Of a stretch of DNA of 64,000 bases, positions 10,396 to 47,429 are shown in pieces. The notes beneath the pieces are model-generated. The model made no database searches. It was not told the origin of the DNA and saw only the letters and a program-made list of their open reading frames with translations. The stretch spans positions 535,594-599,593 of the forward strand of contig CAVVRO010000008.1 of assembly GCA_963750645.1 (NCBI GenBank), read 5' to 3'. Every line of letters begins with the position of its first letter. Position 1 is the first letter of the stretch. The stretch is from an uncultured Microthrixaceae bacterium. GTDB taxonomy: Bacteria > Actinomycetota > Acidimicrobiia > Acidimicrobiales > VFJN01. A program made the position numbers and the translations under genes.

Positions 10396-10415
10396 GGGCG
10401 GGAGGATACAAGGCG

Positions 10416-30221: not shown

Positions 30222-30306
30222 GCCCTCAGCGTCTGCGTAAGGGGCCCGCCTCCGCATCGGGAGGAACCCCTCAGATCGGCTGGATCTCCCGCCTCCGGGT
30301 CTCGGT

Positions 30307-33257
30307 TCAGGCGATCCCGAGGCGCTGGGCGACGGCGGCGGCGTCGACCCGGCTGGTGACGCCGAGCTTGCGGAGGATGTTCGACACGTGCACGCTGGCC
30401 GTCTTCTCCGAGACGAACAGCTGCTCGCCGATCTGTCGGTTGGTCTGCCCGGTGGCGACCAGCGCCAGGACTTCGGCTTCTCGGGCGGTCAGGCCGAGCC
30501 GTTCGATCGACGTGTCGTCGATGGTCACGCGGGTCGGGGCTTCGACGCTGAGCCGGGTGCGGCGTGAGATCGCCTCGGCCTGGGCCGCCACCGCGGCGGC
30601 GCCGAGGTCGATGGCCATGCGGTAGGCGGCCTGCAGCGCTCCGGCGGCAGCGGGCCGTGTCGCCGGCAGAGGCGGCAGCGTCGGCTTCGCGTAGCGTGCG
30701 CCACTGCCATCCACCACCGGTCGCCGAGGTCGCTCCCAACGCTCCACGGCTTCCGCCCAGGCGTCCGGGTCCGGGGCGGTGAGGCGGGTGAGGCTGGCCC
30801 TGGCGTGGGCGAGGTGGGCGACGATGTCGCGGGACATGGCCGGTCCCAGTGCTGTTCTGGTCGTCGACCTGGACCTGGTCGATGCGCTGCCGCAGCAGGC
30901 TGACGGTCGCGTCGACGTCGACCGGCCGGCCCGCAGCGAGGGCATCGAGTGCCTGCTCGACGGCCGCGGCGACGCTGAGCATCGCGAACCGGGCGGACCA
31001 CAGCGTGGCGGTCGCGGCGGCGTGTCTCCCAGCCGTGCTCCGCCGCCGCACCCGCCTCCGCCCAGTTGCCGAGGGCGAGGTGGACGTCGGCGACGGCAGA
31101 GTCGAGGAACGTCTGGTGGAAGCCGTCGGTGGGTCGTGCGGTGGCGTCAGCGAGGAGCTTCGTCGCCCGCTCGGTGTCGCCCCGCCTGGCCGCGAGCATG
31201 GCGCCCGCCCGCGCGACCCGGAAGATCCCGACCGGCAGGGTCTGGTCGGTCGTGTGGCGGGCCAGCGTCGCCTCGGCCTCGGACCAGCGGCCGAGCCGGA
31301 TGAGGCCTTCGGCGGCCAGGGCGTCGAGGTAGCCACCGAAGCTGTGGTCGAGCCCGGCCAGGTGCCCTTCGGCGACCGCGTCGAGGGCGGCGTTCACCGC
31401 CTCCAGGTTGCGGCCGTCGTCGAGGAGCGCGGCGCAGAAGTAGATCGCCGCGAGCGCTCGTGCTTGCGCTGTCGGGGCCGCCGCCATGGCCTCGCGGCAC
31501 AGCTCGACCGCCCTCGCGGGGTCGGCCGACGATGGCTGCGGACGAGGCCGAGCGTGCGGCGGGCCATCGCCCAGGCCAGCGGGATCGTCGGCCGGGCGTT
31601 CTCGACGAGCTCGAAGACGCGCTGCGCACCACTGCTCGGACAGCTCGTAGTGGCCGGCCATGAGCCTCGGCCTGCCCGAGTCCGGCGAACACCCCTGCCG
31701 CGTTCGGGTCGCCGTCGGTCGCCGAGGAGCGCACGCGGCCTGCTCGAACTCGGCTCGGCTCTCCTCGAGGTAGCCCGACGGCCCACAGGTAGCGGCCCAG
31801 GCGCTCGTGCCCGAACGCTTCGCCCTTGCGGAGGCGGCCCGACCTGGAAGGCTGCCTGGCGCGACCTCGCACGGCTCGCTCGTTGCCCGACGGTGGCACG
31901 TGGCGAGCTCGGCGGCCTGCCACAGCCGGTCGACCACGGTCGTCCTGCCCGGCGCTCTCGACCGGCGTCGTCCCAGCAGCTCGAACGCCCGCTCGAGATG
32001 GCGCGAACGCGGCCGCTGGGGCGATCGTCGCTGCGGCGTCGGCGGCGGCGAGCAAGGCGACGAACGCGCCTTCGCGGTCGCCGGCGCGGTCGAGGTGGAA
32101 GGCGAGCTCGCCGGCCCGGTCGGCCCGCGCCGAGCTCGGCGGTGGACTGCTGTTGGAGGGCGTCGGCGACCCGGCGATGGAGGCGGGTTCGCTGCGACGG
32201 GAGCAGGTCGGCGTAGACGACCTCGCCGATGAGGGCGTGACGGAACCGGTAGGCGTCGGTGGCGGCGTCGACCACGACCAGCTGCGCGTCGATCGCGGCG
32301 CGGACGCGCCCGTTCGATGGCCTCGTCGTCGAGGTCGACGATCGCGCGCAGCAGGTCGTGCGTCGGTCGTCACGGCCCGACGACGGCCATGGCACCGAGC
32401 GACCTGGCGGGCCTCGTCGTCGAGGCCGGCGATGTCGGCGGAGATCAGGTCGGACAGGACGGCGGGGATCGCCTCGCCGGCGACGTGGGCGGCGACGAGC
32501 TCCTCGGTGAAGAACGGGTTCCCCTGTCCCCGGGCGAGGATCTCGTCGACGAGATCATGCGGCGCGATGGTCCCGAGCAGCGCCGTCGACGCGGGCGGTC
32601 GACGTCGTCGCGGTCGAGGCCGGACAGGTGGATCCGGTGCACCGCCGGTAGGCGGGTGAGCTCGGCGAGCCGCCGCCGCTGCGACGGGTGCGCTCCGACC
32701 TCGGTCGCCCGGTAGGTGCCGACGAGCACGACCGGCTCGTCGAGCAGGTTCCGGGCCAGGAACTCGAAGAGGTCCCAGGTGACGGCGTCGGCCCAGTGGA
32801 GGTCCTCGATCCCGACGACGACGGCGCCCGTCGGCGCCGAGGTGGCCGACAACGTCGAGGATCGGCGCGAACAGCGCCGCCGGGGCCACGGTCGTCGTCT
32901 CCCCGGGGATCGTGCCCGGGGTCGAGCCAGCGGGCGAGCGGGGCGAGGCGCTCGGACTCGGAGAGCAGGTCGGGGCTGGCTGCGGCGGACCTGGCGGAGC
33001 AGGTCGGCGAGCGGCGCCAGCGGGATGACGTCACCACCGATGGGGCACGCACCGCCCGAGGTACAGGCTCACCCCCGCCCGCTCGGCGGCCTCGGCGATC
33101 AGCGTCGACTTGCCGATCCCGGCGTCGCCGCCGACCAGCAGGATCGACGGGATACCGGCCTGCGTGCGTCCGCGAAGGCCGCTCGAACAGGGCGAGCTCC
33201 TCGCTTCGTCCGACGAAGTTGGGTTCTGGTGGCGATCGGGCACGGCGATCTCATCAT
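30307..33257 (-). pseudogene. LAL-type (large ATP-binding LuxR family) regulator, multiply frameshifted
   Basis: The C-terminal LuxR HTH is intact (LTAREAEVLALVATGQTNRQIGEQLFVSEKTASVHVSNILRKLGV). Walker A LLVGGDAGIGKSTL lies near 33.1 kb. Segments VVVGIEDLHWADAVTWDLFEFLARNL, GNPFFTEELV, YRFRHALIGEVVYADLLPSQRTRLHRRVADAL and TPR-like parts are spread over all three frames from about 30.65 kb upward. Confidence 0.8.
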
Positions 33258-33402: not shown

Positions 33403-34750
33403 ATGCACGGTCGTCCCGTCCACCAAGTCCTCGGCGAGACCACGGCGAGCCACCCGAACCGGTGGCGCATCCTCGGCGTGCTCGTGCTCGCCCTGCTCGT
33501 CACCTCCATCGACCACACCATCATCAACGTCGCCCTGCCCCGGCTGGTCGGCGACCTCGGCGCCAGCTCGGCCCAGCTGCAGTGGATCGTCGCCGCCTAC
33601 ACCATCGTGTTCGCCGGGCTGCTGCTCACCGCCGGCAGCCTCGGCGACCGCTTCGGCCGCCGGCACGCCCTGCTCGCCGGCCTGGCCACGTTCCTCGGCC
33701 GGCTCCGATCGTCGCCGCCACTCGCCGGCTCGACGACGGCGCTCATCGCCGGCCGCTGCGTCATGGGCGTCGGCGGCGCGCTGATCATGCCGACGACGCT
33801 GTCGATCCTCGTCAACGTGTTCGGCGATCCCCGCGAGCGGGCCAAGGCGATCGCCGGCTGGACCGCCGCGAGCGGCGCCGGCATCGCGCTCGGACCGATC
33901 GTCGGCGGCGCGCTGATGCGCAGCTTCTCGTGGTCGTCGGTGTTCTGGATCAACGTGCCGCTGCTCGTCGCCGCGCTTCGTCGGGGCGCTGCACCTCGTC
34001 CCCGACTCCCGCGACCCGCACGCGACCCGGCTCGATCCCGATCGGCGCCTGCCTGTCGATCGCCGCGATCAGCACGCTCGTCTACGCCATCATCCAGGCA
34101 CCCGAGCAGCGGCTGGACGTCGACCGCCGTCGCTGTCAACTTCGCGGTCGGGGCCGCGATCGCGGTCGCTGTTCGTCGGCTGGGAGATGCGCCGCGACGA
34201 CCCGATGCTCGACATGCGGCTGTTCCGCAACCGCAGCTTCTCCGCCGGCAGCATCGCCCTCGCCCTGCTGTTCTTCGCCATGGCCGGCACCGTGTTCCTG
34301 CAGGCGCAGTACCTGCAGTTCGTGCTCGGCTACACCCCGCTCGCCGCCGGGTTCGCCCTCGTCCCGGCCGCGATCGGGATGCTGCTCGGCACCGGCGCCG
34401 GCGCTCACCTCGCCGCCAGGCACGGCGGGCGCATCGCCGTGACCACCGGCACGCTGATCGCCGCCGGCGGCGTCGCCGTGCAGGCCGCGCTTCATCGACG
34501 GCACGTCGTACGCCCCGACCGGTGTCGGGCTGCTGCTGTTCGGCCTCGGCGCCGGCATCGCGATGCCCGCCGCGACCGACCTGATCATGGCGACGCTTCC
34601 GCCGGCACGGGCCGGTGTCGGCTCGCCGTCAACGACACCGTCCGCGAGCTCGGCGGCGCGCTCGGCGTCGCGGTCATCGGCAGCGTCGCCGCCAGCCAGC
34701 TACGCCTCGCACGTCATCAGCGGATCGGTGCTCAGCAGTGTTCGCATCGT
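33403..34750 (+). pseudogene. MFS transporter (DHA2/EmrB-QacA type), frameshifted; 3' end approximate
   Basis: The N-terminal half is in one frame (RWRILGVLVLALLVTSIDHTIINVALPRL...LGDRFGRR...). The second half is in other frames (DMRLFRNRSFSAGSIALALLFFAMAGTVFLQAQYLQFVLGYTPLAAGFALVP and VNDTVRELGGALGVAVIGSV). Confidence 0.75.
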
Positions 34751-35770
34751 CGTGGGCGCTGCTCGCCTTCCTCACCGGCCACTGGACGGATCAGGCGCAG
34801 CGCTGGGCCGCCGTGCCGGCAACCGTGATGGCCATCGGCGCCGTGACCATCCTCGCGCGTCGCCCCGACCGGCAACGAGGTCGGATGGGTGTGGCCGCCG
34901 GCGATCCTTGCGCTCGCCGCCTGGATGACCGTCCAGTCGCGACGCGCATCTGCGGAGCCGGGCCCGCACCCTCGTCCTCTACCCGGTGTTCGCGGCGCTG
35001 GCGTTCTCCGCCCTGGGCGGCGCGTACGAGACCTACCGCGAGACCAGCGACACATCCGTCGTCGGCGATGCCCGGTCGGCTCATCGACGTCGGCGGTCAC
35101 CAGCTGCACATCAGCTGCACCGGCTCCGGCAGCCCGACCGTGGTCCTCGAGCCCGGTATGGGCGAGCCGTCACCGGTCATGGCCGGTTGGATCGCCCCGG
35201 GCGTTGCGACGACGACCAGGGTCTGCGTCTACGACCGAGCCGGACGAGGATGGAGCGAGTCGGCATCCGCCCCGCAGGACGGGGAGCAGGTCGCCACCGA
35301 CCTGCACACCCTGCTGTCACGTGCAGGCGAGCCCGGCCCGTACGTGCTCGCAGGTCACTCGGCCGGGGGGATCTACGTCCTCAACTTCGCCAAGCTCTTC
35401 CCGCAGGACGTGGCCGGGCGTGGTGCTGCTCGACTCGATGCACCCCGAGCAGTACACGCGCATGGCCTCCTGGCCCGGCTTCTACGAGATGTTCCGACGC
35501 ATGTCGGCCGTGTCGCCCTCGCTCGCACGGCTCGGGATCGGCCGCCTGATCTACGGCGGTGCGTACAGCGAGCTGCCGGCGGCCCAACGCGACCAGGAGC
35601 GCGCCTTCCTCTCGACGCCACGGCACAGCCGCAGCGTCCGAGACGAGTTCAGCAAGATCCGCATGGCGATGGGCCAGGCCGCCAAGCTGCACACGCTTGG
35701 GCGACGTTCCACTCGCCGTTCTGTTCCTACGCACGGTTCGGCACCGGAACCAGCGACGCGCCGATCCGCG
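34741..35770 (+). pseudogene. membrane-anchored alpha/beta hydrolase, frameshifted and 3'-truncated; coordinates approximate
   Basis: TM segments lie in three frames, followed by MPGRLIDVGGHQLHISCTGSGSPTVVLEPGMGE and the nucleophile elbow LAGHSAGG. VVLLDSMHPEQY...AAKLHTLG is in another frame. The sequence breaks off after LGDVPLAVL. Confidence 0.65.
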
Positions 35771-35779
35771 ACGCAGACC

Positions 35780-36298
35780 TTCGAGACACAAGCATCGGAC
35801 CTCCACGCCGTTCTTGACGCGGCAGGAGAACCGGCCCCGTACGTCGTGGTCGGCCACTCCTTCGGCGGCGCCGAAGCGGTGACGTTCACGTCGCAGTACC
35901 CCGACGACGTGGTCGGGCTCATGCTCGTCGACGCGAGCCCGGCCACGTGGCCGACCACCGTGTGCTCGGTCCCCGCCTACGAAGAGCTGTGCGCTGTCAT
36001 GCACGACTCGACGCTGGACCCGGAACGACTCGACGCGATCCCCGCGTTTGCCGACGTCGCAGCCATCAGGTCGCTGGGTGATCTCCCGATGACCGTGATG
36101 AGCGCGGCGCACCGGACCGATCCTGCTCTCATGCAGCATGAGCTCACGCGGCTCGACGCCGTCTGGGCAGCGGGTGTCAGAACCTGGGCGTCGTTGTCAC
36201 CAGCTTCCACCGTGGTCTCCGTGCAGGACACCGGCCACCACATCCAGCTCGACCAGCCGGCCCTGGTCGTCGAGGAGATCGGGAAGCTCCTGCCTTGA
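35780..36298 (+). pseudogene. alpha/beta hydrolase paralogue lacking its N-terminal ~70 residues
   Basis: It begins at ASDLHAVLDAAGEPAPYVVVGHSFGG, which parallels VATDLHTLLSRAGEPGPYVLAGHSAGG of the upstream copy. It continues in frame to LGDLPMTVMSAAH...DTGHHIQLDQP and a stop at 36298. Confidence 0.6.
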
Positions 36299-36332: not shown

Positions 36333-36371
36333 TGGTCGGAGATCTGAACTCCCGACCTCTGCGTCCCGAAC
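36333..36371 (-). repeat. partial duplicate of the tRNA-Pro 3' half (att-like direct repeat)
   Basis: tggtcgg + agatctgaactcccgacctctgcgtcccgaac matches tRNA positions 39512-39518 and 39526-39557. There is one mismatch and a 7-nt gap. Identity stops in the anticodon loop. Confidence 0.8.
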
Positions 36372-36498
36372 ACGATCCTGGCGACGACAGGCCCGGCCAG
36401 CAGTGGCTTCGCGAATCGGGCGGGATCCTCGCGAGATCGGCTCTGCCTCAGCTGGCGTCGACGAGCTGGTGTCGCGGATAGAAGCCCTCGCCGCTGAA

Positions 36499-36987
36499 TC
36501 AAGTCTCGATGACAGACTCGTCGAACAACAGGAGCTCCTCCTCGTCTGGAGGTTGAAAGACCGTTGCCCACTGTTCGAAGTGAGCCCGTGTCATAGGCGA
36601 GGCGGTCCATTCGCCCGAGGCCTGGCGGCGCTGAGCTCGCTCGATGAGCTCCTCCAGAGACGCGTCGAGGTAGTGCAGTTCGACTCCCGCGCCCAGCGCT
36701 CGGGCTCCACGTCGCTTCTCATCCCGTTCGACCCGCGCCCAGTGGCCCCACTCCAAGATGACGCTCTGACCCTGCGCGAGGAGCTCCTGGGCAAGGGCCC
36801 ACAGCTGCCGTTCGACGCGGACTCGGAGCTCGTCGTCCCACACGTCGAGACCCAGCTCAGTCGTCCATTGATCCTTGTCCAACCTGATCGCTGGAATCTT
36901 GGGGGCGAGCCGGCGAGCGAGCGTCGTCTTGCCCGACGCTGGAAGCCCACAGATCAGCACCAGCCGCGTCGATGAGACCTCGTTCAT
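36499..36987 (-). CDS. P-loop kinase / AAA_33-like ATP-binding protein
   Basis: ATG 36987 gives MNEVSSTRLVLICGLPASGKTTLARRL, which contains a Walker A motif. The product is 162 aa. Confidence 0.7.
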   Translation of the reverse strand: MNEVSSTRLVLICGLPASGKTTLARRLAPKIPAIRLDKDQWTTELGLDVWDDELRVRVERQLWALAQELLAQGQSVILEWGHWARVERDEKRRGARALGAGVELHYLDASLEELIERAQRRQASGEWTASPMTRAHFEQWATVFQPPDEEELLLFDESVIET

Positions 36988-37167
36988 GGAGACTCTCGGT
37001 ACTCGTCCGTCACGGTCACAGCCTGCACGACCCACCTCTCCGGCCCCGGCGCAGCGCGCCGGGTTGCCATCAGGCCGGCGATAGGGGCGGTCAGCCGGGG
37101 CTGGACAATCGGCCGACGACGACGTGAACCACTTGGCACTCCTCCGGCGATGAACGGCGGCTCCCGG

Positions 37168-37632
37168 CTAGCTCAGCGGGCGCCAGAGCACAGCATCCCT
37201 CGCCAGCGACGTCTTGGGACGCGCCACCTCGTAGCCGCAACGTTCGTAGAAGCGGGCCGCTTCGCCGGTATGCAGCCAGAGCTCGGTCGCGCCTGCCTCC
37301 CGTGCGCGGTCGGCGGTCACGCCGAGGAGTCGGCGACCCAGGCCGAGGTCACGCGCTGCGCCGAGCACGTAGACGCCGGAGAGCCAGGGACCCCGGTCGG
37401 CGAACTCGACGTCGACGTCGTCGGTGCAGACACTGGCCGAGCCGACCGGTTCGTCACCCCAGCGGGCCACGAGCGTGAACGGGATCCCGGTCTCACCCGT
37501 CCGGGACCGCAGCCGCTTGCGCCACTCTTCCCGCTCCGCCTCGGTGCCGAGACTCCATTCCCGCCAGTGCCAATGGAGCACCGTTTCGAGGACGGGATCA
37601 GCAGCGCTCATTATGTCGACGTGCACCTCCAC
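37168..37632 (-). CDS. GNAT-family N-acetyltransferase
   Basis: The acetyl-CoA pocket motif GVYVLGAARDLGLGRRLL and the C-terminal ARFYERCGYE are present. Confidence 0.75.
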   Translation of the reverse strand: MEVHVDIMSAADPVLETVLHWHWREWSLGTEAEREEWRKRLRSRTGETGIPFTLVARWGDEPVGSASVCTDDVDVEFADRGPWLSGVYVLGAARDLGLGRRLLGVTADRAREAGATELWLHTGEAARFYERCGYEVARPKTSLARDAVLWRPLS

Positions 37633-38015
37633 CGCCGCATCGTCCCATGCCGGTCGAAGTCGTGACGGCTCAGTCAGCTCTCCATCAGGTCGACCAGGTA
37701 GCCGAGGAACCTCAGCTCGTCGGTCTCGCGCTCCCAGCCGTCAGCACTCGGCTTGCTCTCGACTCGGGCACTGCCAGAGACCGGGTAGAGCGCATCGCCC
37801 GTGCCGCTGCCATGGAGCACGTCGGAATCCACCGACAGTCCGGTCCGATCTCAGCTCTGCCGCCCCGGCACTGAGGCCCGGGCCGATAGCTGAGAGGTGC
37901 GCCGATAAGCCAAGCCGACCCAGCACGCCGCGAGGTCAAGTAAGCACGCCGCCACGATGATCACGTCGCCTGCACGATCGCCCGACACGGCGCGAACCGT
38001 ACTCAGAGAATCCCC

Positions 38016-38046
38016 TTGCACCTCACGCGACGTGACCTCTTACGGT
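38016..38046 (+). promoter_or_regulatory. MerR-type promoter: -35 TTGCAC, 19-nt spacer with a central palindrome, -10 TACGGT
   Basis: TTGCAC lies at 38016-38021. The 19-nt spacer contains tcacg-cga-cgtga (38023-38035). TACGGT lies at 38041-38046. The GTG start at 38054 is 7 nt after the -10 element, which implies a leaderless transcript. Confidence 0.55.
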
Positions 38047-38053
38047 TACGAGC

Positions 38054-39241
38054 GTGGCGCGGGAGTGGACGGTCGGTGAGCTGGCGCATCAAGCCAGCGT
38101 GTCGGTGAGAACACTGCACCACTACGACCAGATCGGGCTCTTGAGTCCGACGCGCAGTGCCGCTGGCCATCGCCGCTACACGGAGCCCGACGTTGCCCGC
38201 CTCACCCAAGTCGTCGCGCTACGCAGCGTCGGGCTCTCCCTCGGCGAGATCCGACGCTGTCTCGACAGCGGCGAAGCCCTGACCGCCACGCTCACCCGGC
38301 AGCTGCGCGACCTCGACCTGCGCGTCGCGCAGACGTCAGCGCTCCGGGACCGTCTCGCCACCGTCGTGGCCCAGCTCCAGAGCGGCCGCGACCTCGACAG
38401 CTACGACCTGATGGCCTTGATCGGAGACACGAAGATGATGGCAGAAGGCAAGACCAAGATCGTCGAAGAAGCGGGCAATGGTGAAGTGCTTGTCCGCAGC
38501 AAGGACGACATCACCGCCGGCGACGGAGCCAAACACGATGTGCTCGATGGCAAGGCGGCCGCATCCACGCGGACGACCTGCAACATCTTCCAGCTCCTCG
38601 AGCGCAACGGCGTGCGCACCCACTTCGTGGATCGTGTCGACGATGTCACCTTCCGGGCGCGCAACGTCGAGATGATCCCACTGGAGCTTGTCGCACGCCG
38701 GTACGCCTCCGGCAGCCTTCGAGACCGCTTCCCTGACCTGCCGGACGGCGCAGTCTTCGAAGAGCTCATGTTCGAGGTCTTCGAGAAGGACGATGCCAAT
38801 CACGACCCGCTGCTGGACTTCGACTTCGAAGCAGGCGTTCTGCGACGGCACGTGCCCAACAAGAACGCGGCAGAAGCGATCGGCCCGGACGCCAAGGCCG
38901 GCGCCCTCATCACTGAAGAACCGCTAGCAGAGAGCCGTTACGCCGACGTCTCGCCGGAGCTCATCGCACGCCTTCGAAGCCGCACCGTCTCGGCGTTCGA
39001 GGTCATCGAGGCGGCGTGGAAGCAGCACGGCGGCGTCTACATCGACTTCAAGATCGAATGCGGATTCGATCGCGAGACAGGCGACCTACTGGTGGCTGAC
39101 GTCATCGACAGCGACTCCGGTCGCTTGCGCTTCGGCGACGTCGACATGTCCAAGCAGTCGTATCGCGACGGCACGGCCACCTTGCCGGAGATCAAGAAGA
39201 AGTTCGACGAGGTTGCAGCCCTTACGGACCGATTCGTCTGA
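38054..39241 (+). CDS. MerR-family DNA-binding domain fused in frame to a SAICAR-synthetase (PurC)-like domain
   Basis: The N-terminus WTVGELAHQASVSVRTLHHYDQIGLLSPTRSAAGHRRYTEPDV plus a coiled coil spans about 125 aa. It is followed by MMAEGKTKIVEEAGNGEVLVRSKDDITAGDGAKHDVLDGKAAASTRTTCNIFQLLERNGVRTHF...DSDSGRLRF, which matches the PurC pattern. No stop separates the two parts. Confidence 0.7.
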   Translation: MAREWTVGELAHQASVSVRTLHHYDQIGLLSPTRSAAGHRRYTEPDVARLTQVVALRSVGLSLGEIRRCLDSGEALTATLTRQLRDLDLRVAQTSALRDRLATVVAQLQSGRDLDSYDLMALIGDTKMMAEGKTKIVEEAGNGEVLVRSKDDITAGDGAKHDVLDGKAAASTRTTCNIFQLLERNGVRTHFVDRVDDVTFRARNVEMIPLELVARRYASGSLRDRFPDLPDGAVFEELMFEVFEKDDANHDPLLDFDFEAGVLRRHVPNKNAAEAIGPDAKAGALITEEPLAESRYADVSPELIARLRSRTVSAFEVIEAAWKQHGGVYIDFKIECGFDRETGDLLVADVIDSDSGRLRFGDVDMSKQSYRDGTATLPEIKKKFDEVAALTDRFV

Positions 39242-39480
39242 GCCATCAGAACTCCAACACGAACGGTCGACGACGCCTCTCCACAGCGACCGCAGCTCTG
39301 CTGAGCGTCCGCGACGTATGCGGCGATCTGCGCGGCACCGCAACCGGCCGGGCGATGACCAGAACGCGCGGCCCGTCGACACGAGCAGCGCGCCACCGCT
39401 CACGTCGCGCGATGGGCGCGGGATGGAGACGAACCGCGGGATCGCCGCGGGACGCGATCGAACCGGGGACCGTCAACGAA

Positions 39481-39509
39481 GAAGCCGCAGGTGGCTGACC
39501 TGCGGCTTC
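39481..39509 (-). terminator. hairpin terminator immediately 3' of tRNA-Pro
   Basis: A perfect 11-bp stem gaagccgcagg/cctgcggcttc encloses a 7-nt loop. On the minus strand it is followed by TTCGTTGAC. It starts 2 nt after the tRNA CCA end. Confidence 0.6.
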
Positions 39510-39511
39510 CG

Positions 39512-39588
39512 TGGTCGGGTGGGGGAGATTTGAACTCCCGACCTCTGCGTCCCGAACGCAGCGCTCTGCCAAGCTGAGCCACCACCCG
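39512..39588 (-). tRNA. tRNA-Pro (anticodon CGG), CCA encoded
   Basis: Manual cloverleaf: acceptor CGGGTGG/CCACCCG, D arm GCTC-AGCTTGGCA-GAGC, anticodon arm CTGCG-TTCGGGA-CGCAG, variable loop AGGTC, T arm GGGAG-TTCAAAT-CTCCC, then A-CCA. Confidence 0.9.
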
Positions 39589-40589: not shown

Positions 40590-43307
40590 CTACGGGGTGA
40601 TCAGGCGCCCGGCGGCGTACACCGTGGTCGATCCGCCTGGCCCTGTCGCCGTGACCCCGCAGGTCACGGTGGTTCCGACATCACCGACAGCCACGATGTA
40701 CTTGTTGGTGGTGGACGGGAGCGTCACACCGTTGCGCTGCCAGGAGTAGGCGTACGACACTGCGTTGAGCCAGGTGCCCCGGGCGCAGGTGAGCGTTCGG
40801 CCCGGGCGAGGCGTACCGGTGATGGTCGGTGCGACCGTGTTGGTGGGCGCCGACGGCACCAACCTCGGCACGGCCGTGGCCTCACCAGTGCCCATGCGGC
40901 CCGCGGCCGTCACGGTGCACGACAGCTCATGCCCACTGTCCGCCACCGTGATCGCGAAGAACTCCGACGTGGCGCCCGGCACCGGCGTGCCGTCCCGCAG
41001 CCACTGGTAGGCGTAGGTCTGCGCGTTGGTCCAGGTGCCTCGCTGACAGCGGCCGGTTCCACCGATCCCCCAGGTGCTGCCCGACTGCACGAGCATGCGA
41101 GGCAGCACCGTGTTGGCCGGTGCCGGATCCAGGGTACGGCTGCTGCTCGACGCGACCGTCTGGGACCCGGCCACGTTCTCTCCCGAGACCTGGCACGAGA
41201 GCACCGTCCCCGCGTCCTCGGTGGTCACGATGTACACGCTGTTGTAGGCCCCGGGGATGACCTGACCGTCACGCAGCCAGTCCGTGAAGAGGGACGGCGT
41301 GGGCTGTCCGGTCCACGTACCCGAGGTGCAGGTCAACGGTGTCCCGATCGAGGGGCGGTTGATGCCCGTCACCCGCGGGGCGGTCACGTTCAGGGGGGCC
41401 GTCACGGTGGGGATGTTCGCCGGCGACGACGCCGCCTGGTCCGACCCGCCGTCGTTCGTGGCGGTGACCAGACATGCGATCGTGCTCCCGGCGTCGGCAA
41501 GGGCGATCTCGTAGCTGTCGGCCGGCTCACCCACGCTGACGCCGTTGACGAGCCAGTCGAAGGCGAGCTCTGGCGACGGCTCGCCGCCCCACGTCCCCGG
41601 CGAACAGGTCACGATCTCGCCGACCGCGGCGGTGCCCTGCAGGGTCGGGGGGGTGAGGTTGAACGGCGGCGTGAAGTCCACGACGACCTCCTCCGAGATC
41701 ACGCTCGCCGTTCCGCCCTCGTTGTCCGCCGTGACGACGCAGGAGATCCCCGCCGCGACGTCCTGCGAGCGAACCGTGAAGGACGACTGGGCCTCTCCCG
41801 GGATGGTGACACCGTCGCGCAGCCACTCATAGCTGTACGCGAACGGCGCGGTACCGAGGAACCCCGACGGGGTGCAGGTGACCGTGTCGCCGACCTCGGC
41901 CGTGGCCGGTGCGATCGTGGCGGCGGTCGTCTGGTCAGCCTCCGCGGGGACGCCCAGCTCGATGACGGTCTCGAACGAGCGGGCAAGCCCCTGGAAGATC
42001 CGGCCAGCAGCGGCCAGTGCGTGGCCCCACGGGTCGACCGCCGCCGACACGAGCAGGTCGTTGTCCGACGAGACGGTGGTGACCTGGGTGGGAGCACCGA
42101 CGGCGCCGTTGGCCCGTGCGAACGCGGCGTACGCGAACCGGGAGTTGGACGCCGACACGTACTCGCTCCACACGACAGCGATGTCGTTGTTCGCGTTCGC
42201 GGCCACGACGGGCCTCAACGCGTAGTCGCCCGGACCGTCGATCTCCTCCTGCGTGAAGCCCTGACCTGGCAGCCGGCGGGCCAAGAGCATCCTCAGCGGG
42301 CTCTGGTCGTTCCATGTGGCGAACACCGTGTCCTCGGCTCCCACGGCGATCGACGGCTGGCTTCCCAGCTGGTTGCCGCTGAGGAAGTACGAGGGCGACC
42401 ACACCCCACCGGTGTTCACGATCGCGTGCATCCCGGTGCCCCGTGACCAGATGATCGCGATCGTGGACCCGGCCGCGTCGGCATCGACCATGTTGTTGGA
42501 GCCGGATCCGCTGGCGCTTCGCAGCGTGGGCGCCGTCCAGGTGCCGCCAGTCCACTCGGCGGAGAACATCACATCGGTGTTGGCCGCGGTGCGGGCGCCC
42601 CAGGCGACGACGGCGTGACCTGTGTCGTCGACGGCCGCGTTCGGCTGCATGTGCACGTCCTGCGTCGATGTGTTCCAGAGCTGGGGAACCGCGTCCCAGC
42701 CGACGCCAGGCCGATACGCGGCCGCGAGGACCCTCCACGTGGTGACGACGCCACAGCAGGAGTTGTTGGGCGCCCAGGCCAGCACGGTCGTGCCGTCGGC
42801 GCCGATGTCGACGCTCACCCGGTTCGCGTAGCCACTGGTCGGGCCAGCCGTACCGGGCGAGCTGTACTGGACGGCGGGCTCCCACGTGCCGCCGGCCGGT
42901 CGGCGCACCGCCAGCGCCGAGCCGTTGGCGTAGGCGACCGCGATGTCGCCTCCGGGGCTGACGCTCGCGTCGAGGGTGCCCGGAGAGGGCGCGATGGAGG
43001 GAATGGTCTGCACGGGACCCCAGGTGCGGCTCCCAGGCGCGCGCTCTCTCATGTGGAGCGAGTTGTTGAAGGCGACATAGCGCTCGAAGAACGCGTACGC
43101 GCGGCCCGTGTCGTCATAGCGGACGATCACGTTGGTGAGGTCGTACCCGGTCGGCGCGATGTTCTCCGATGGCCCCCAGTCGGCTGAGGCCGTCGGCGCC
43201 AATCCCGCCAGTGCCATCAGCACCACTGCCACCACGACAAGCCGTCGAGCTACCGCCCGCGATCCACCACTGCCCGTCCGCACCATCTCGACCCCCCGCG
43301 TCGTCAC
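40590..43307 (-). CDS. secreted protein: signal peptide, propeller-like repeat region and five tandem Ig-like domains
   Basis: Signal peptide RRLVVVAVVLMALAGLAPTASA. Seven recurring strands follow (DIAVAY, TTVLAW, HAVVAW, TIAIIW, TVFATW, DIAVVW and others). Residues ~461-905 (nt 40593-41927) form five 85-92-aa repeats. Each repeat has a conserved Cys pair and a W(L/Q)R(D/N)G motif, as in VGDTVTC...WLRDG...ISCVVTA. Confidence 0.8.
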   Translation of the reverse strand: MTTRGVEMVRTGSGGSRAVARRLVVVAVVLMALAGLAPTASADWGPSENIAPTGYDLTNVIVRYDDTGRAYAFFERYVAFNNSLHMRERAPGSRTWGPVQTIPSIAPSPGTLDASVSPGGDIAVAYANGSALAVRRPAGGTWEPAVQYSSPGTAGPTSGYANRVSVDIGADGTTVLAWAPNNSCCGVVTTWRVLAAAYRPGVGWDAVPQLWNTSTQDVHMQPNAAVDDTGHAVVAWGARTAANTDVMFSAEWTGGTWTAPTLRSASGSGSNNMVDADAAGSTIAIIWSRGTGMHAIVNTGGVWSPSYFLSGNQLGSQPSIAVGAEDTVFATWNDQSPLRMLLARRLPGQGFTQEEIDGPGDYALRPVVAANANNDIAVVWSEYVSASNSRFAYAAFARANGAVGAPTQVTTVSSDNDLLVSAAVDPWGHALAAAGRIFQGLARSFETVIELGVPAEADQTTAATIAPATAEVGDTVTCTPSGFLGTAPFAYSYEWLRDGVTIPGEAQSSFTVRSQDVAAGISCVVTADNEGGTASVISEEVVVDFTPPFNLTPPTLQGTAAVGEIVTCSPGTWGGEPSPELAFDWLVNGVSVGEPADSYEIALADAGSTIACLVTATNDGGSDQAASSPANIPTVTAPLNVTAPRVTGINRPSIGTPLTCTSGTWTGQPTPSLFTDWLRDGQVIPGAYNSVYIVTTEDAGTVLSCQVSGENVAGSQTVASSSSRTLDPAPANTVLPRMLVQSGSTWGIGGTGRCQRGTWTNAQTYAYQWLRDGTPVPGATSEFFAITVADSGHELSCTVTAAGRMGTGEATAVPRLVPSAPTNTVAPTITGTPRPGRTLTCARGTWLNAVSYAYSWQRNGVTLPSTTNKYIVAVGDVGTTVTCGVTATGPGGSTTVYAAGRLITP

Positions 43308-43413
43308 CAGTGTGCAGACCGTGCCCGAGTCGCCGTTACGACGGCGTTACACACCGGGTAGCCTCGCTGCGGCTGGGGCTGGGGAGGGCAGGTACGAGGG
43401 CGGGCAGGGTGAG

Positions 43414-46332
43414 ATGACGAACCCAGGTGGGGCGATTCGGTGGCAGGTCTTCGGTGGCGTCGCCGTCGAGGCCGACGGACGCGAGGTGCCTCTCGGGCCG
43501 CGCCTGCGGTACGCCCTCGGCTGCCTGCTCGTCGAACCGGGCCGGGCGGTGACAGCCGAGGTACTCGCGGGAGACGGAACCTCGAACCGAGAACAGGCCG
43601 CCACGGCTGGTCGGGTCGCGGTCCGACGGCTGCGCGTGGCCCTCACCACAGCGGGGGCAAGCGACGCCGTCTCCACGACCCAAGCCGGCTACTGCCTCGA
43701 CGTCGATCCCTCGCTCGTCGATCACGTCCAGTTCGCACGATGGTGCCGGGCCGCTGATGACGAGCCTTGGCCGGACGCCGCATGGCGCTACGCCGATCGC
43801 GCTCGGCGAGCTTGGCGCGGCCGTCCCTTCGGCGACCTGGCCGACGAGGTCCACTTCCAGGCCGCCGCTACGCGGCTGGAGGAACAGCACCGCCTCATCG
43901 TCGACCGGTGGGGAGAGCTCGCGCTGCGAGCCGGCACCCATGAGCGCTTCACGGCCGTGCTCGCCGACGACGTGGCGGCGGAGCCCCTGCGCGAGCGTCG
44001 TTGGGCGACGCTCGCGCTGGCCCGATACCGCTCGTGCGACCAGGTAGGAGCCCTGCGGACCGTTGCCGACGCTCGTCGCGAGCTGGTCGAATCGGTCGGC
44101 GTCGAGCCGGGGCCGGAGCTGCGGACCCTCGAGCAGCAGCTGCTCGACCAGGATCCTGAGCTGGACTGGCGTCCGTCGCAGACGGTCCCGACAGGTCATC
44201 TCGGCATCGGGCCCGTTGCGGTGGGCCGGGACGCCGACGTCCGGGACGTGATCGACCTCCTCGACCGCCACCGTGTCGTCGTCCTCGAAGGACCGAGCGG
44301 CATGGGCAAGTCGACCGTGGCCGCTGAAGTCTGCCGATGCATCCGACGACCCTCGGCATGGGTGACGTCGAGCGCGATACACGAGGCTGGCCTCGTCATG
44401 GCGACGGCGGCCGCGCTGGGGCTGCCCACCCGAGGCCCCGGGCCCGACTGCACCGATGTCGTCGCGCGGCACCTACACCGTTCAGCCGCCCTGTTGGTGC
44501 TCGACGATCTCGACGACGCGGACACGCTCGTCATCGACGCGCTCATGGCCGTCGTGGCACGGGCGCCCGACGCGCGCGTGATCGTCACGGCACGCTCGTC
44601 ACTGCCGATCCCGCACGGCATCCACCGTCCGCTGGTCCCCCTCGACGCGGGTGCTCCCGACGACCCCGGTCCTGCTGCGCTCCTGGCCGCCGACTTCGCC
44701 TCGATCCCCCGGAGCTGCATCCAGCAGCGATGGACCAGCATCGAGGACATCTGTCAGCGCAGCGCCGGCATCCCGATGGCGATCCGACTCCTGGCCGGTT
44801 CCGGGGACGGCTTGCCACCACCCCCGAACAGCTCCTCCGCCCAAGACCCCGTCGGCGATGCTGCCCTTACGGCCTTGAGCCACCTGCCCTCGCGAGTCGT
44901 CGAGCTCGTGACGACGATCGCCGACCTGCGCCGCCCGGTGACGGTGCCGCTGGCAGCACGCATCCTCGGCACGCCCGAGGCGGAGCTGCGACGCAACCTC
45001 GGCGCTGCCTCTCGTGCTGGGCTCGTCACCGAGGTGACGGCCGGCGACGTGGCGCGCATCAGCGTCCTCGACCAGGTCGCGGACGTCTTGCGTCCCCAGG
45101 GCCCTGACCCAGGCACCACCAGCTGGCTTGCCATGCGGATGGCCGACGAGACGATCGAGCTTGTCGATGCCGCACAGCCATCGCTGGTGGGTCGGCTGGA
45201 TCGGGCTCGTCTCGCCGAGGTCGACGACGACCACGACGCGCTGCTCTGGGCTCTTGGACACCTCTGCGGTCAGCCACGGCTGCGACTGGCCAACCGCCTC
45301 GCCGTCGTGTGGAGCGCGTGCGGGCGCAGCCTCGAGGGGAGTGCGCTGCTCGCCGACATCGAGCCGCTGGCCGCCATCGCGGCGCCCATCGATCGGGTTC
45401 GGTACTGGGTGATGCGTGCGCAGATGTCGCCCGCACTGTCCGTGCGGGCCGCCTTGGCGCCGCAGCTCGCGGAGGCGGCGGACATCGCTGATCGGCTCGG
45501 CCACCGGGACCTCGCCGTCCGGAGCACGACCGAGCTCGCGCTCAGCCGCATCTGGGCCGCTGACGCCGTCGGTGCGACCGAGCTCCTCGACCGCTGCGAG
45601 GACCGAGTCGTCCTCGACGACTTCGGGCGGCTGACGCTGGCCACGCTGCGCGCGATGATCCGGGGACTGCGGGGTGACGTTCGCGGAGCGATCGACGACC
45701 TCCTCGTCACCGCCGATGCCTTCGACGACGGGGGCATGGCCGCCGATGCCGTCGGTGTGCTGCACATCGCCCTTTCCCTCGCGACGCTGACCGACGACGA
45801 CGAGCGGGCCGAGACCATCCTCGACCTTGCCGAGGGGTTCGCTCCCGATCGCTTCACCGGATACCCGGTCGCTGGGCTGACGTACCGCCGGGCCCAGCGC
45901 CTGACGCTGACCGACGACAACCGTGCTGGTCCGTTGCTGTTCGCTGCCTACGCGGCCCTGCACCGGCACGGTGACGGGCAGTGGGCCGCGTCGTGCCTCG
46001 GGGACCTGGGTTGGTGGCGCTCCAACCACGGCGATCCGGGCGGGCTCGCTGACCTCGCAACCGCGGCGCTCGACCTCCTGGAGGTCTGGTCGGCGGCGGC
46101 ACCCCTCTCCCTGGCCCGGATCGCCGTGCTCGTCGATCGGCTCGGCCGCCCGGCGGACGCCGGCCTCCTGGCAGCGGCGGCCGGCGCCCACCATCGAGAC
46201 ACCGGGATCAGCCTCTCGGCCGCCGACCACGAGTTCGTCGCCTCGACCTGCGCCGCGCTGACCACCGGCTCCCGGGCGGCACCCCAGGACGGTGAGGTTG
46301 TCGGGCTGCTGCGAGAGCTCTGCCTGGCGTGA
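43414..46332 (+). CDS. SARP/AfsR-family regulator (winged-helix + BTAD + NB-ARC-like ATPase + helical repeats)
   Basis: ATG 43414 gives MTNPGGAIRWQVFGGVAVEADGREVPLGP. The BTAD region shows ERRWATLALARYRSCDQVGALRTVADARRELVESVGVEPGPELRTLEQQLL. Walker A is GPSGMGKST. The product is 972 aa. Confidence 0.85.
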   Translation: MTNPGGAIRWQVFGGVAVEADGREVPLGPRLRYALGCLLVEPGRAVTAEVLAGDGTSNREQAATAGRVAVRRLRVALTTAGASDAVSTTQAGYCLDVDPSLVDHVQFARWCRAADDEPWPDAAWRYADRARRAWRGRPFGDLADEVHFQAAATRLEEQHRLIVDRWGELALRAGTHERFTAVLADDVAAEPLRERRWATLALARYRSCDQVGALRTVADARRELVESVGVEPGPELRTLEQQLLDQDPELDWRPSQTVPTGHLGIGPVAVGRDADVRDVIDLLDRHRVVVLEGPSGMGKSTVAAEVCRCIRRPSAWVTSSAIHEAGLVMATAAALGLPTRGPGPDCTDVVARHLHRSAALLVLDDLDDADTLVIDALMAVVARAPDARVIVTARSSLPIPHGIHRPLVPLDAGAPDDPGPAALLAADFASIPRSCIQQRWTSIEDICQRSAGIPMAIRLLAGSGDGLPPPPNSSSAQDPVGDAALTALSHLPSRVVELVTTIADLRRPVTVPLAARILGTPEAELRRNLGAASRAGLVTEVTAGDVARISVLDQVADVLRPQGPDPGTTSWLAMRMADETIELVDAAQPSLVGRLDRARLAEVDDDHDALLWALGHLCGQPRLRLANRLAVVWSACGRSLEGSALLADIEPLAAIAAPIDRVRYWVMRAQMSPALSVRAALAPQLAEAADIADRLGHRDLAVRSTTELALSRIWAADAVGATELLDRCEDRVVLDDFGRLTLATLRAMIRGLRGDVRGAIDDLLVTADAFDDGGMAADAVGVLHIALSLATLTDDDERAETILDLAEGFAPDRFTGYPVAGLTYRRAQRLTLTDDNRAGPLLFAAYAALHRHGDGQWAASCLGDLGWWRSNHGDPGGLADLATAALDLLEVWSAAAPLSLARIAVLVDRLGRPADAGLLAAAAGAHHRDTGISLSAADHEFVASTCAALTTGSRAAPQDGEVVGLLRELCLA

Positions 46333-46340
46333 GCCCGGCG

Positions 46341-47429
46341 CTACAGCATGTAGGTCGCGAGCTCGGTGAGGCCATGGATGTCGTGGACGTCGGTGGGCAG
46401 GAACGGCACCCGCACGACCGGCGCCGGCGCCACCGCCTCGGCCAGGCCCGCCAGGTGCTCCTCCTCGCGGGATGCCACGAGCTGGAAGTCGGCGAGGTTG
46501 CGGTAGAGGCCACCGAGGTCCGTGCCCTCGAGGGTGACGGCACGCGCGCCGGTGGCCGCCGCGAGCCCCCCACCGAAGGTCGGGTGCATGCGGTTGACGA
46601 TGAGGGCCCGCACGCCGATGCCGGCCTCGGCGAGCTTGGCGACGAAGAACTCGGCCTCCTCGATCGTGTCCCGGCGCGGGGACGCCACGAGCACGAAGGC
46701 GGTGTCCGCGTCGGACAGGAGGTGGACGACCGCATCGGCCCGCACCCGGAACCCCTCTTCCATGCCCTCGAAGGCCTGGAAGAACGCGACGGCGTCGTCG
46801 ATCACCTCGGCGCCGACGACCTTCGCCACCGTGCGGAGGAACGCCTGGGTCGCGACGTTCACCGCCCTGACGATGCCGCGACCGGGCGAGGTGATCATGC
46901 GGAACAGGCGGTGGTCGAGGAAGCGTGACAGACGCCGCGGGGCATCGATGAAGTCGAGGGCGTGGCGCGTGGGCGGGGTGTCGACGACGACGAGATCGAA
47001 GTCCGTGCGGGCGTGCAGCTCGTAGAGCTTCTCCATCGCCATGTACTCCTGCGTGCCCGACAGGGCCCCAGAGATGTTCCGGTAGAAGCGGTTCTCGAGG
47101 ATGCGCTGAGCCTGCTCCGGGGTGGTGGCGTTGGCCGCCACCAGGTCGTCGAACGTGCTCTTCGTGTCGAGCATGAGCGCCCACAGCTCCCCGGGCCAAT
47201 CGCCGTCGATCCGGCTGGGCGTGCCGGTCAGCCCCTCGAGCCCGAGGGCGTCCGCGAGGCGCTTGGCGGGGTCGATGGTGACGAGAACGGCTCGTCGTCC
47301 GGCGCGCGCCGCTTCGAGGGCCAGCACCGCAGCCGTGGTCGTCTTGCCGACGCCACCAGTCCCGCAGCACACCAGGATGCGGCGCTCCTCGACGAGCTCC
47401 CGGAGTGAGGGACCGACTGCGGCCATCAC
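46341..47429 (-). CDS. ArsA/GET3-family ATPase
   Basis: The P-loop is ILVCCGTGGVGKTTTAA, with TIDPAKRLADALG. The start overlaps the upstream stop (ATGA). Confidence 0.85.
   Translation of the reverse strand: MMAAVGPSLRELVEERRILVCCGTGGVGKTTTAAVLALEAARAGRRAVLVTIDPAKRLADALGLEGLTGTPSRIDGDWPGELWALMLDTKSTFDDLVAANATTPEQAQRILENRFYRNISGALSGTQEYMAMEKLYELHARTDFDLVVVDTPPTRHALDFIDAPRRLSRFLDHRLFRMITSPGRGIVRAVNVATQAFLRTVAKVVGAEVIDDAVAFFQAFEGMEEGFRVRADAVVHLLSDADTAFVLVASPRRDTIEEAEFFVAKLAEAGIGVRALIVNRMHPTFGGGLAAATGARAVTLEGTDLGGLYRNLADFQLVASREEEHLAGLAEAVAPAPVVRVPFLPTDVHDIHGLTELATYML

Follow-up and report, generated by a model that had tools for sequence, protein, structure and literature searches.

The window analysed here is a 64,000-nucleotide stretch of DNA from an uncultured Microthrixaceae bacterium of the class Acidimicrobiia (assembly GCA_963750645.1, contig CAVVRO010000008.1, positions 535,594 to 599,593; all coordinates given below for the window are counted from the first letter of the stretch), with a G+C content of 70.9%. 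At positions 38054 to 39241 of the forward strand, it carries an open reading frame (ORF) with a GTG start, encoding a protein of 395 amino acid residues (aa), in which a MerR unit is followed by a domain related to PurC, i.e. the synthetase of succinylaminoimidazolecarboxamide ribonucleotide (SAICAR). A single ORF joining these two parts had been pointed out in an earlier description made without any database search—referred to here as the sequence-only reading—and the Pfam assignments, the length and the start codon all agree with it. The gene is preceded by a compact MerR-type promoter, and its two modules meet at a pair of in-frame ATG codons.

Domain organization of the MerR-PurC protein

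The MerR module (38054–38419, forward strand; aa 1–122) belongs to the class of TipAN, as indicated by Pfam, a match in the PDB, the AlphaFold 2 model, Foldseek and the ratio of non-synonymous to synonymous substitution rates (dN/dS). It is covered by the Pfam families MerR_1 (PF13411; aa 6–71, E = 2.9e-18), MerR (PF00376; E = 1.8e-14) and MerR-DNA-bind (PF09278; aa 47–103, E = 3.5e-6). In the model, the helix-turn-helix (HTH) motif and the wing occupy aa 6–71 and are followed by a long helix (aa 76–109)—supported also by the match to PF09278 and predicted, from a monomer model, to serve in dimerisation—and by a short helix (aa 116–122). The best solved relative of this half is TipAN (2vz4), the DNA-binding domain of the Streptomyces protein TipAL (sequence E = 5.2e-17; Foldseek identity 42%, template modelling (TM) score 0.73), the runners-up being the TipA-like SkgA and Mta. 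PF07739, the TipAS domain, has no match in the window protein in the Pfam scan and SAICAR_synt is found instead; the protein is therefore to be regarded as a TipAN-class MerR protein and not as an orthologue of TipAL.

The PurC module (38435–39241, forward strand; aa 128–395 plus the stop codon) was delimited by Pfam, active-site residues, Foldseek and dN/dS. The family SAICAR_synt (PF01259) matches aa 129–376 with E = 3.6e-41 and a score of 141.9 bits (cutoff 20), the best matches in the PDB are the human and insect PAICS (2h31, E = 3.8e-37), and Foldseek retrieves PurC structures of several organisms with TM scores of 0.81–0.85 (normalised to the target) and E-values from 1e-16 to 1e-20. In comparison with PAICS, the module contains a clade-specific insertion of ~27 aa at about aa 254–309 (38813–38980). 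The AlphaFold monomer model of the whole 395-aa protein has a mean predicted local distance difference test (pLDDT) value of 83.4, which falls below 50 at aa 124–126, i.e. between the two modules.

The SAICAR-synthetase active site of PAICS has been described by a list of 24 residues (PMC9376930), 21 of which are identical in the window protein. Among the identical ones are the GKTK loop of the ATP site, all Mg ligands (E211, D251, E335, D349) and the residues T154, K333, K367, R371 and R357 binding aspartate and carboxyaminoimidazole ribonucleotide (CAIR). The active-site residues are invariant over 114 modules fused to a transcription factor (85 to MerR, 27 to HTH and two to sigma factors), the sole systematic change being W214 to G (Gly356 of the window protein) at a position occupied by Ser in the active E. 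coli PurC. Profile, fold and active-site residues thus all place the C-terminal part in the SAICAR synthetase family, as the sequence-only reading had assumed, and the module is likely to be catalytically active, judging from the residues retained.

Conservation of the fusion

The search for homologues covered 5.8 billion proteins, 269 of which were retrieved and classified. Among them, ~89 clusters contain both domains in the same order and with a length of ~395 aa, sharing 71–97% identity and originating from independent assemblies of ENA, JGI, NCBI and Logan; uninterrupted ORFs of 395 aa are present in at least eight genome-derived loci, and the linker IGDT(K)M is kept at the protein level across the fusion homologues. 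Automated annotation labels these proteins purC or 'purC / MerR regulator', and an exact-sequence look-up returned no record of the exact window protein. Over seven gap-free orthologous genes, the MerR half has a dN/dS of 0.27 and the PurC half one of 0.22, dS being ~0.4 in each; since both ratios are low and dS is equal, both halves must be translated and constrained. The idea that the MerR half might be a decaying 5' remnant is ruled out by its ratio of 0.27 and by the invariant DNA-binding residues.

It should be pointed out that the sequence-only reading had attached a caveat to the junction, namely that a TGA overlaps the sequence ATGATG there, so that a single insertion or deletion could have turned a translationally coupled pair of neighbouring genes, merR and purC, into one. 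The window and related metagenome-assembled genomes (MAGs) built from long reads do hold probable frameshifts, which lends the caveat some weight: within the window, an alpha/beta-hydrolase at 34615–36298 is divided over two overlapping ORFs in different frames, and a match to RPE65 at 29054–31336 is limited to the C-terminal end of a 760-aa ORF, while one orthologue of the fusion (L015, 9611–10663) is shortened to 350 aa. As the sequence-only reading had suspected, these assemblies do contain indel errors or pseudogenes. At the junction itself, the suspicion has been effectively refuted by the same-length clusters from independent assemblies, the uninterrupted loci, the conserved linker and the dN/dS values of both halves, and the in-frame fusion of MerR to PurC can be considered, from these sequence comparisons, real and conserved with near certainty.

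Further comparisons were based on 80 genome loci, among the matches listed, so that the taxonomic distribution described below represents a lower bound. Two MerR lineages can be distinguished, the first one including the window (L006–L010, L015 and L086) and the second one comprising L016–L018.

Promoter and operator

The −35 hexamer TTGCAC (38016–38021, forward strand) is the same in seven of the eight lineage-1 loci (TTGCCC in L001), its counterpart being TTGACC in both lineage 2 and the MerR genes of the TipAS type. It is followed by a 19-nt spacer (38022–38040, forward strand) centred on the dyad TCACG-CGA-CGTGA (38023–38035), conserved in the orthologous loci and extended to CCTCACG-CGA-CGTGAGG in L001, the protein of which is 75% identical, and by the −10 hexamer TACGGT of the TANNNT type (38041–38046, forward strand), present as TACGGT or TATGGT in all eight. 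Only 7 nt separate the −10 hexamer from the GTG codon at 38054 (6–7 nt across the eight loci), and a leaderless or near-leaderless mRNA is therefore predicted. When the upstream regions of the eight loci are aligned, the DNA beyond about −50 cannot be aligned, the near-invariant part consisting of TTGCAC, CTCACGCGACGTGAC..., TACGGT, the 6–7 nt and the start codon. The promoter drawn by the sequence-only reading—of the MerR type, with the dyad in the middle of a 19-nt spacer—is found at the described positions and is now backed by a phylogenetic footprint.

Directly 5' of the −35 hexamer lies the 14-nt element CTCAGAGAATCCCC (38002–38015, forward strand), conserved in lineage-1 loci and marking the left limit of nucleotide homology, which starts at ~37973–38014 in the comparison with nine loci. 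Its core, AATYCC(C), recurs in the second MerR lineage (L016–L018), and it may act in the manner of an UP element or extend the operator.

The exact dyad occurs once in the 64-kb window, with 0.035 occurrences expected from shuffled sequences; no further exact copies turned up elsewhere in the window or in the ±10 kb around the loci fetched, and a search of the window allowing two mismatches yielded matches at the chance level. A generic scan for sigma-70 promoters and terminators gave no match at the locus, which is uninformative because the scanner allows spacers of 16–18 nt and thus excludes those of 19 nt. No riboswitch or other known RNA was found in the 420-nt upstream intergenic region, where Rfam at E ≤ 1 reported only the tRNA-Pro and a chance match. 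The metagenome scan for more orthologous promoters added one further full-length locus (L086); its other matches are mostly unrelated MerR genes, which served as comparators of the TipAS type.

With regard to the second lineage, its promoter is composed of TTGACC, a 19-nt spacer with CCCGACG-TAG-CGTCAGG, and TTAAGT—a different sequence with the same geometry—and is followed by a leader carrying a Shine-Dalgarno element. The layout TTGACC-CTCACG-N3-CGTGAGG also precedes the unrelated MerR genes in L106, L117, L120, L127, L129 and L145, and three of those scanned with Pfam encode MerR plus TipAS (PF07739, E about 1e-36 to 1e-40). Since genuine MerR-TipAS genes share the operator layout and the MerR half matches TipAN, both the half and its operator are assigned to the TipAL class; in terms of sequence, the MerR unit and operator are TipA-class, with PurC filling the position of TipAS. 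The window promoter presumably also resembles the published tipA promoter of Streptomyces lividans, the tested support being the comparison with the TipAS-type genes.

Self-regulation is implied by the location of the operator within the gene's own promoter, as the sequence-only reading had also concluded. As the dimer of TipAL activates its own promoter (PMC12809767), autoregulation of the TipA kind is, by analogy, quite probable for the MerR-PurC gene.

Module boundary

The junction reads aagATGATGgca (aag ATG ATG gca), with the ATG codons at 38435 and 38438 encoding Met128 and Met129. The inter-module linker (aa 123–127, I-G-D-T-K; 38420–38434, forward strand) carries the Shine-Dalgarno-like sequence GGAG at 38423–38426, located 8 nt before the in-frame ATG ATG (38435–38440, forward strand), the predicted start of a PurC-only product. 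The boundary is ATC GGA GAC/GAG ACG AAG ATG in all eight lineage-1 loci shown. GGA is a rare codon, representing 5.5% of the Gly codons in the genome of the window, and the junction Gly is the only column fixed as GGA among the 26 conserved Gly columns of the seven-locus codon alignment.

Comparable arrangements are seen in the related fusions. The linker of the sigma-fused proteins is variable except for R-E-K-E-K/R-L-M, encoded by GAG AAG GAG/GAA AAG CTC ATG, and in most loci this island of conservation gives AAGGAG, 6 nt and ATG (about 17 species among the matches listed). In the second MerR lineage the boundary reads ATG GAG GCC AAG ACG ATG, i.e. GGAGG, 8 nt and ATG; the MerR module is here collinear with TipAN up to "...EQAMEAK" (residue 108 of TipAL; E = 4e-32), and Met109-Gly110 aligns with Met110-Gly111 of TipAL, the published start of TipAS, which covers G111–P253 of TipAL (PMC6078987). 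A Met is present within 8 residues of the junction in 78 of the 85 MerR fusions, the corresponding count being two of eight, within 12 residues, for the PurE-PurC and PurD-PurC fusion proteins of the same clade. The nucleotide homology of the window to the HTH-fused purC begins at 38436 and that to the sigma-fused version at 38444, so that the points of module exchange coincide with the junction ATG; the claim that the PurC domain starts at its own N-terminus is borne out by the same observation.

The junction ATG is thus probably better read, at the sequence level, as an internal translation start similar to that of tipA, for which two in-frame products together with self-activation are documented (PMC6078987, PMC12809767). 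Whether both a long regulator and a short enzyme are made in the present case has, by this analogy, about an even chance of being answered positively.

PurC clade and its partners

With the PurC module alone as the query, 1.84 billion cluster representatives were searched exhaustively, and only about 2,000 matches were obtained. The nearest relatives without a regulatory part are PurE-PurC fusions (P0125 with 64% identity, P0129, P0132 and P0138), the other close ones being PurD-PurC (P0145), PurC-PurE, PurC-PurF and standalone proteins of 270–290 aa. Outside the Acidimicrobiia, nearly all relatives among the 80 loci—candidate-phyla bacteria, Verrucomicrobia and others—have purE fused or adjacent, and the PurC module therefore comes from a genuine lineage of purine enzymes, whereas in Acidimicrobiia it is a transcription module that takes the upstream slot of PurC.

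Besides the two MerR lineages, there are two other types of such fusions. A 380-aa type consists of an unclassified 112-aa HTH domain and PurC (L011, L003 and L004), and a 478-aa type combines a sigma factor of the extracytoplasmic function (ECF) type with PurC in about 20 species among the matches listed, including MAGs of Acidimicrobiaceae and Iamia. In the neighbour-joining tree, constructed without support values, the modules fused to transcription factors form one clade, the HTH and sigma types being interleaved among those with MerR. The two sigma groups are 64–69% identical to each other, similarly to the divergence of their PurC modules, while the two MerR groups are only 48–51% identical and differ in their junctions; MerR seems therefore to have been recruited to PurC at least twice.

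Each type has its own promoter signature. The sigma-fused genes exhibit the ECF-like motif GCGAACC-N14/15-CGGTAAG a few nucleotides before GTG in ~15 species among the matches listed, within roughly the 40 nt that precede the ORF (L019 at ~9320–9358, L021–L034 and others). The HTH-fused genes exhibit TTGACT followed by three or four CTGACGTCAG palindromes (L003 at ~820–949, L004 at ~1600–1729, L011 at ~9535–9664), which presumably form an array of operators for the unclassified HTH domain at the N-terminus. Based on these signatures, it appears that the attached transcription module controls its own gene in every class. No anti-sigma gene is evident near the sigma-PurC genes, the context of which is partly conserved, often with an ABC-F ATPase gene upstream.

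A few MAGs of Candidatus Saccharibacteria with a GC content of 0.41–0.48 (L012, L013, L014 and L020; match at ~10001–10800) contain PurE-PurC or standalone PurC that is 73–74% identical to the module of the high-GC Acidimicrobiia, the value for other Saccharibacteria copies being 40–50%; this suggests, as far as sequence identity can indicate it, that the gene passed between Saccharibacteria and actinobacteria fairly recently.

Genomic context

The genes surrounding MerR-PurC in the window have nothing to do with purine synthesis; they encode an AAA_33 P-loop kinase-like protein (36499–37035, reverse strand), a GNAT acetyltransferase (37168–37632, reverse strand), the tRNA-Pro, a response regulator and a STAS protein. 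Nine related loci, with 80–97.6% identity, share nucleotide homology with the window only over about 38002–39254, i.e. from the promoter to the stop codon. Four relatives with 91–97% identity (P0001, P0003, P0009 and P0014) have a common context composed of a CMD-family gene, the unit, ASCH, FMN_dh and further genes, the window unit being located outside this context of its closest relatives.

The gene for tRNA-Pro (CGG; 39512–39588, reverse strand), the 3' end of which points toward MerR-PurC, is proposed as an integration site, and a degraded direct copy of its 3' half (36333–36371, reverse strand) as the distal att-like boundary. The copy consists of 34 nt with one mismatch and the terminal TGGTC with a 7-nt deletion. 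The GC content is 0.65–0.69 in the 3.2-kb segment between them and 0.70–0.75 outside, and no integrase is visible in the segment. We read this segment, from its sequence features, as a remnant of integration at a tRNA, and the unit was consequently probably acquired or relocated in this genome. The adjacency to a tRNA was considered also as a general feature of the unit and rejected, being limited to the window, L018 with tRNA-Arg (7016–7090) 61 nt downstream of MerR-PurC and, more loosely, L008 with tRNA-Ala (7825–7898) 1.7 kb upstream of it.

The AAA_33 protein of the window is 80% identical to that encoded directly downstream of the lineage-2 MerR-PurC in L017 (10873–11346), while the PurC modules of the two loci are only 69% identical; its link to MerR-PurC could reflect co-transfer or a functional connection. 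Further downstream in the window, there are genes for an Ig-like repeat protein of 905 aa (40590–43307, reverse strand), a large regulator of the BTAD/STAND-NTPase type (43132–46332, forward strand) and an ArsA-like ATPase (46341–47429, reverse strand), all three unrelated to MerR-PurC.

Comparison with known systems

The closest parallel is provided by TipAL/TipAS of Streptomyces lividans, a class including also Mta, SkgA and AlbA. The N-terminal module matches TipAN on DNA in both sequence and fold, as given above, the promoter combines TTGAC/TTGCAC with CCTCACG-N3-CGTGAGG in a 19-nt spacer, the operator being part of the gene's own promoter, and a predicted in-frame internal start lies at the boundary, the site being homologous to the TipAS start in lineage 2. 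The C-terminal domain, however, is a SAICAR synthetase and not the all-helical antibiotic-recognition domain TipAS; due to this replacement, the ligand would presumably come from central metabolism instead of being a thiopeptide antibiotic. A further difference of the window lineage from TipAL is a longer linker (aa 110–127) and the leaderless-type start.

A DNA-binding domain and a pathway enzyme are united in one polypeptide also in the so-called trigger enzymes, such as the biotin ligase/repressor BirA, PutA and NadR, although to our knowledge no enzyme of the purine pathway belongs to them. PurC is an ATP-dependent ligase like BirA, and from what is generally known of the latter, substrate occupancy could gate DNA binding. 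Unlike these three proteins, MerR-PurC uses a different DNA-binding family and a MerR activator-type promoter in place of a repressor operator; moreover, a single enzyme clade carries three transcription modules that are interchangeable, and a probable enzyme-only product is predicted. The PurC module is of the same clade as that in PAICS and in the PurE-PurC and PurC-PurE fusions, but its partner in Acidimicrobiia is a transcription module and the junction keeps a start codon with a putative ribosome-binding site (RBS), which are lacking from the enzyme–enzyme fusions.

Concerning the sister sigma-PurC proteins—relatives only, not the window gene—these resemble ECF41 and ECF42, i.e. ECF sigma factors with regulatory C-terminal extensions, in having regions 2 and 4, an additional C-terminal domain and an ECF-like promoter of their own, the difference being that the extension is a complete metabolic enzyme. 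PurR of Bacillus subtilis, finally, a regulator of the purine pathway, couples a winged helix to an effector domain of the phosphoribosyltransferase (PRT) fold that binds phosphoribosyl pyrophosphate; its effector domain thus also has the fold of a purine/pyrimidine enzyme, but the PRT domain is catalytically dead, whereas the catalytic residues of PurC are all retained here, and PurR differs from MerR-PurC in both its enzyme fold and its DNA-binding family.

Proposed mechanism and alternative explanations

Taken together, we slightly favour an interpretation of the protein as a hybrid of a TipAL-type MerR and a catalytically intact PurC, autoregulated, switched by the occupancy of PurC and made as both a long and a short product. 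By analogy with TipAL, the long protein would bind the operator in the promoter at 38016–38046 as a dimer and activate its own promoter by the DNA untwisting typical of MerR. With the PurC domain empty, it would exert weak repression or no activation, and with the active site occupied, it would activate transcription through untwisting of the spacer. The occupancy of the PurC active site would thus be the switch. The most likely ligand would be the substrate CAIR-Mg with ATP and aspartate, resulting in substrate-induced expression, with the product SAICAR as an alternative; that the ligand is one of these two compounds is proposed tentatively, again by analogy. The expression of purC would track the flux through the purine pathway, and the Shine-Dalgarno-like element with the in-frame ATG would drive the synthesis of the short product, i.e. 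free PurC, representing most of the enzyme. The sequence-only reading had left open whether the protein is a sensor of a purine intermediate or a regulator-enzyme hybrid; the evidence favours the latter, although it falls short of proof.

Several observations weigh against this interpretation. The module reaches only 107.6 bits with the purC equivalog model TIGR00081 (NCBIfam), under its cutoff of 189.9, and represents therefore a divergent, PAICS-like clade. Neither a second purC nor any other pur gene was found near the fusion in the Acidimicrobiia loci (1.38 Mb of fetched sequence). In the window, the 3.2-kb segment between the tRNA-Pro and its copy (36333–39588) holds, in addition to MerR-PurC, the AAA_33 and GNAT genes, and the flanking DNA is not common even to the copy that is 97.6% identical (L166); this setting weakens the idea of a sole, vertically inherited purC and fits better an accessory or extra copy than the only housekeeping gene. 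The antiparallel coiled-coil dimer of MerR and the dimer of PurC may be sterically hard to combine, judging from the monomer model. As for the internal start, Gly158 in the TAGDGAK motif (38525–38527) is also encoded by GGA in six of seven orthologues for no obvious reason, which tempers the codon argument; synonymous sites around the junction are no more conserved than could be expected, and the case thus rests on the other evidence; the junction of the 380-aa HTH class is GTG GTG without a clear Shine-Dalgarno element; and the Shine-Dalgarno element with ATG could have been left over from an ancestor in which purC was a gene of its own.

Among the alternatives, the one that survives best—still rather unlikely—is that the PurC module only binds a ligand, i.e. 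a purine intermediate, ATP or aspartate, with catalysis being irrelevant; a separate housekeeping purC would then exist elsewhere in the genome and the hybrid would control itself and possibly a wider regulon. Such a sensory paralogue would be in line with the score under the equivalog cutoff, the systematic W214 to G change in the SAICAR-site region, the Acidimicrobiia loci lacking a pur-gene neighbourhood and the location of the window copy in a small insert bordered by a tRNA, the flanks of which are foreign; the clade, moreover, looks derived from a PurC of the candidate phyla radiation (CPR)/Saccharibacteria type and could be a xenologue added beside an existing purC. Pseudoenzyme sensors, however, usually lose some catalytic residues, whereas the catalytic, Mg-binding and substrate-binding residues are invariant in the 114 modules and the position of W214 is Ser in an active enzyme. 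The sister groups are enzyme–enzyme fusions with PurE, PurD and PurF, and the conserved internal RBS with ATG suggests that the module is also made alone. Furthermore, no MAG occurs twice among the 80 loci, no second member of the clade lies within ±10 kb of any locus, and no additional exact copies of the operator were seen in the window or in the same ±10-kb surroundings.

It is clearly less probable that a regulator gene and its target purC merely merged by the loss of a stop codon with no signalling involved, so that MerR would be an ordinary autoregulator not sensing the state of PurC and the RBS with ATG at the junction would be a relic. The resemblance of the junction to a former gene start, with a TGA overlapping ATG as is typical of translational coupling, the unexceptional synonymous conservation there and the existence of standalone forms of the module (P0093 and P0098) would fit such a passive fusion. 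This explanation has, nevertheless, to cope with the fact that the coupling of a transcription factor to PurC arose or was remodelled repeatedly (sigma, HTH and the two MerR lineages, the junctions of which differ), the transcription factor being always N-terminal and kept over deep divergence, with PurC sitting exactly at the effector position of MerR and both halves under similar purifying selection; among the sigma fusions, moreover, the linker varies throughout except at the RBS and ATG. The last explanation, the artificial merging of two genes by an indel discussed above, deserves hardly any credence.

Returning to the favoured reading of MerR-PurC as an autoregulated regulator-enzyme hybrid, a similar logic would apply in sister Acidimicrobiia, with an ECF sigma factor or the unclassified HTH domain on an orthologous PurC. 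A generalized scheme, in which PurC serves as a signal-sensing domain with interchangeable MerR, ECF sigma and HTH modules, autoregulated and with nested start codons, is possible and is offered here with reserve. From the sequences compared, it seems that in this lineage a metabolic enzyme has been connected directly to transcription.

Significance

No description of MerR-PurC, sigma-PurC or any other transcription factor containing a SAICAR synthetase was found in the searchable literature, in accordance with the impression of the sequence-only reading that the architecture has apparently not been described. The parts are known—the TipA-class MerR, PurC, enzyme-regulator hybrids and extended ECF sigma factors—and it is their combination and its recurrence that are new. 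Regulators of the MerR family and ECF sigma factors normally rely on a dedicated ligand-binding or anti-sigma domain as their switch; here, a complete and apparently active enzyme of central metabolism takes the place of the sensor, and it does so with three transcription modules. The repeated coupling of PurC to transcription points to selection.

If the proposed mechanism is true, MerR-PurC would represent a compact natural case of flux sensing by the enzyme itself and a bacterial counterpart of the signalling by SAICAR and aminoimidazole carboxamide ribonucleotide (AICAR) known from eukaryotes, with the nested-gene design of TipAL/TipAS carried from antibiotic sequestration to core metabolism. 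It would be the first transcription system sensing a purine intermediate (CAIR/SAICAR) in bacteria, and the sister proteins would provide the first metabolic enzyme serving as a regulatory extension of a sigma factor. The self-contained unit of ~1.25 kb, consisting of promoter and gene, would offer a portable biosensor of purine intermediates. For the Acidimicrobiia, a poorly studied and mostly uncultured actinobacterial class, it would explain the regulation of purC and mean that they own an undescribed class of one-component regulators, in which the occupancy or turnover of PurC gates the initiation of transcription directly.

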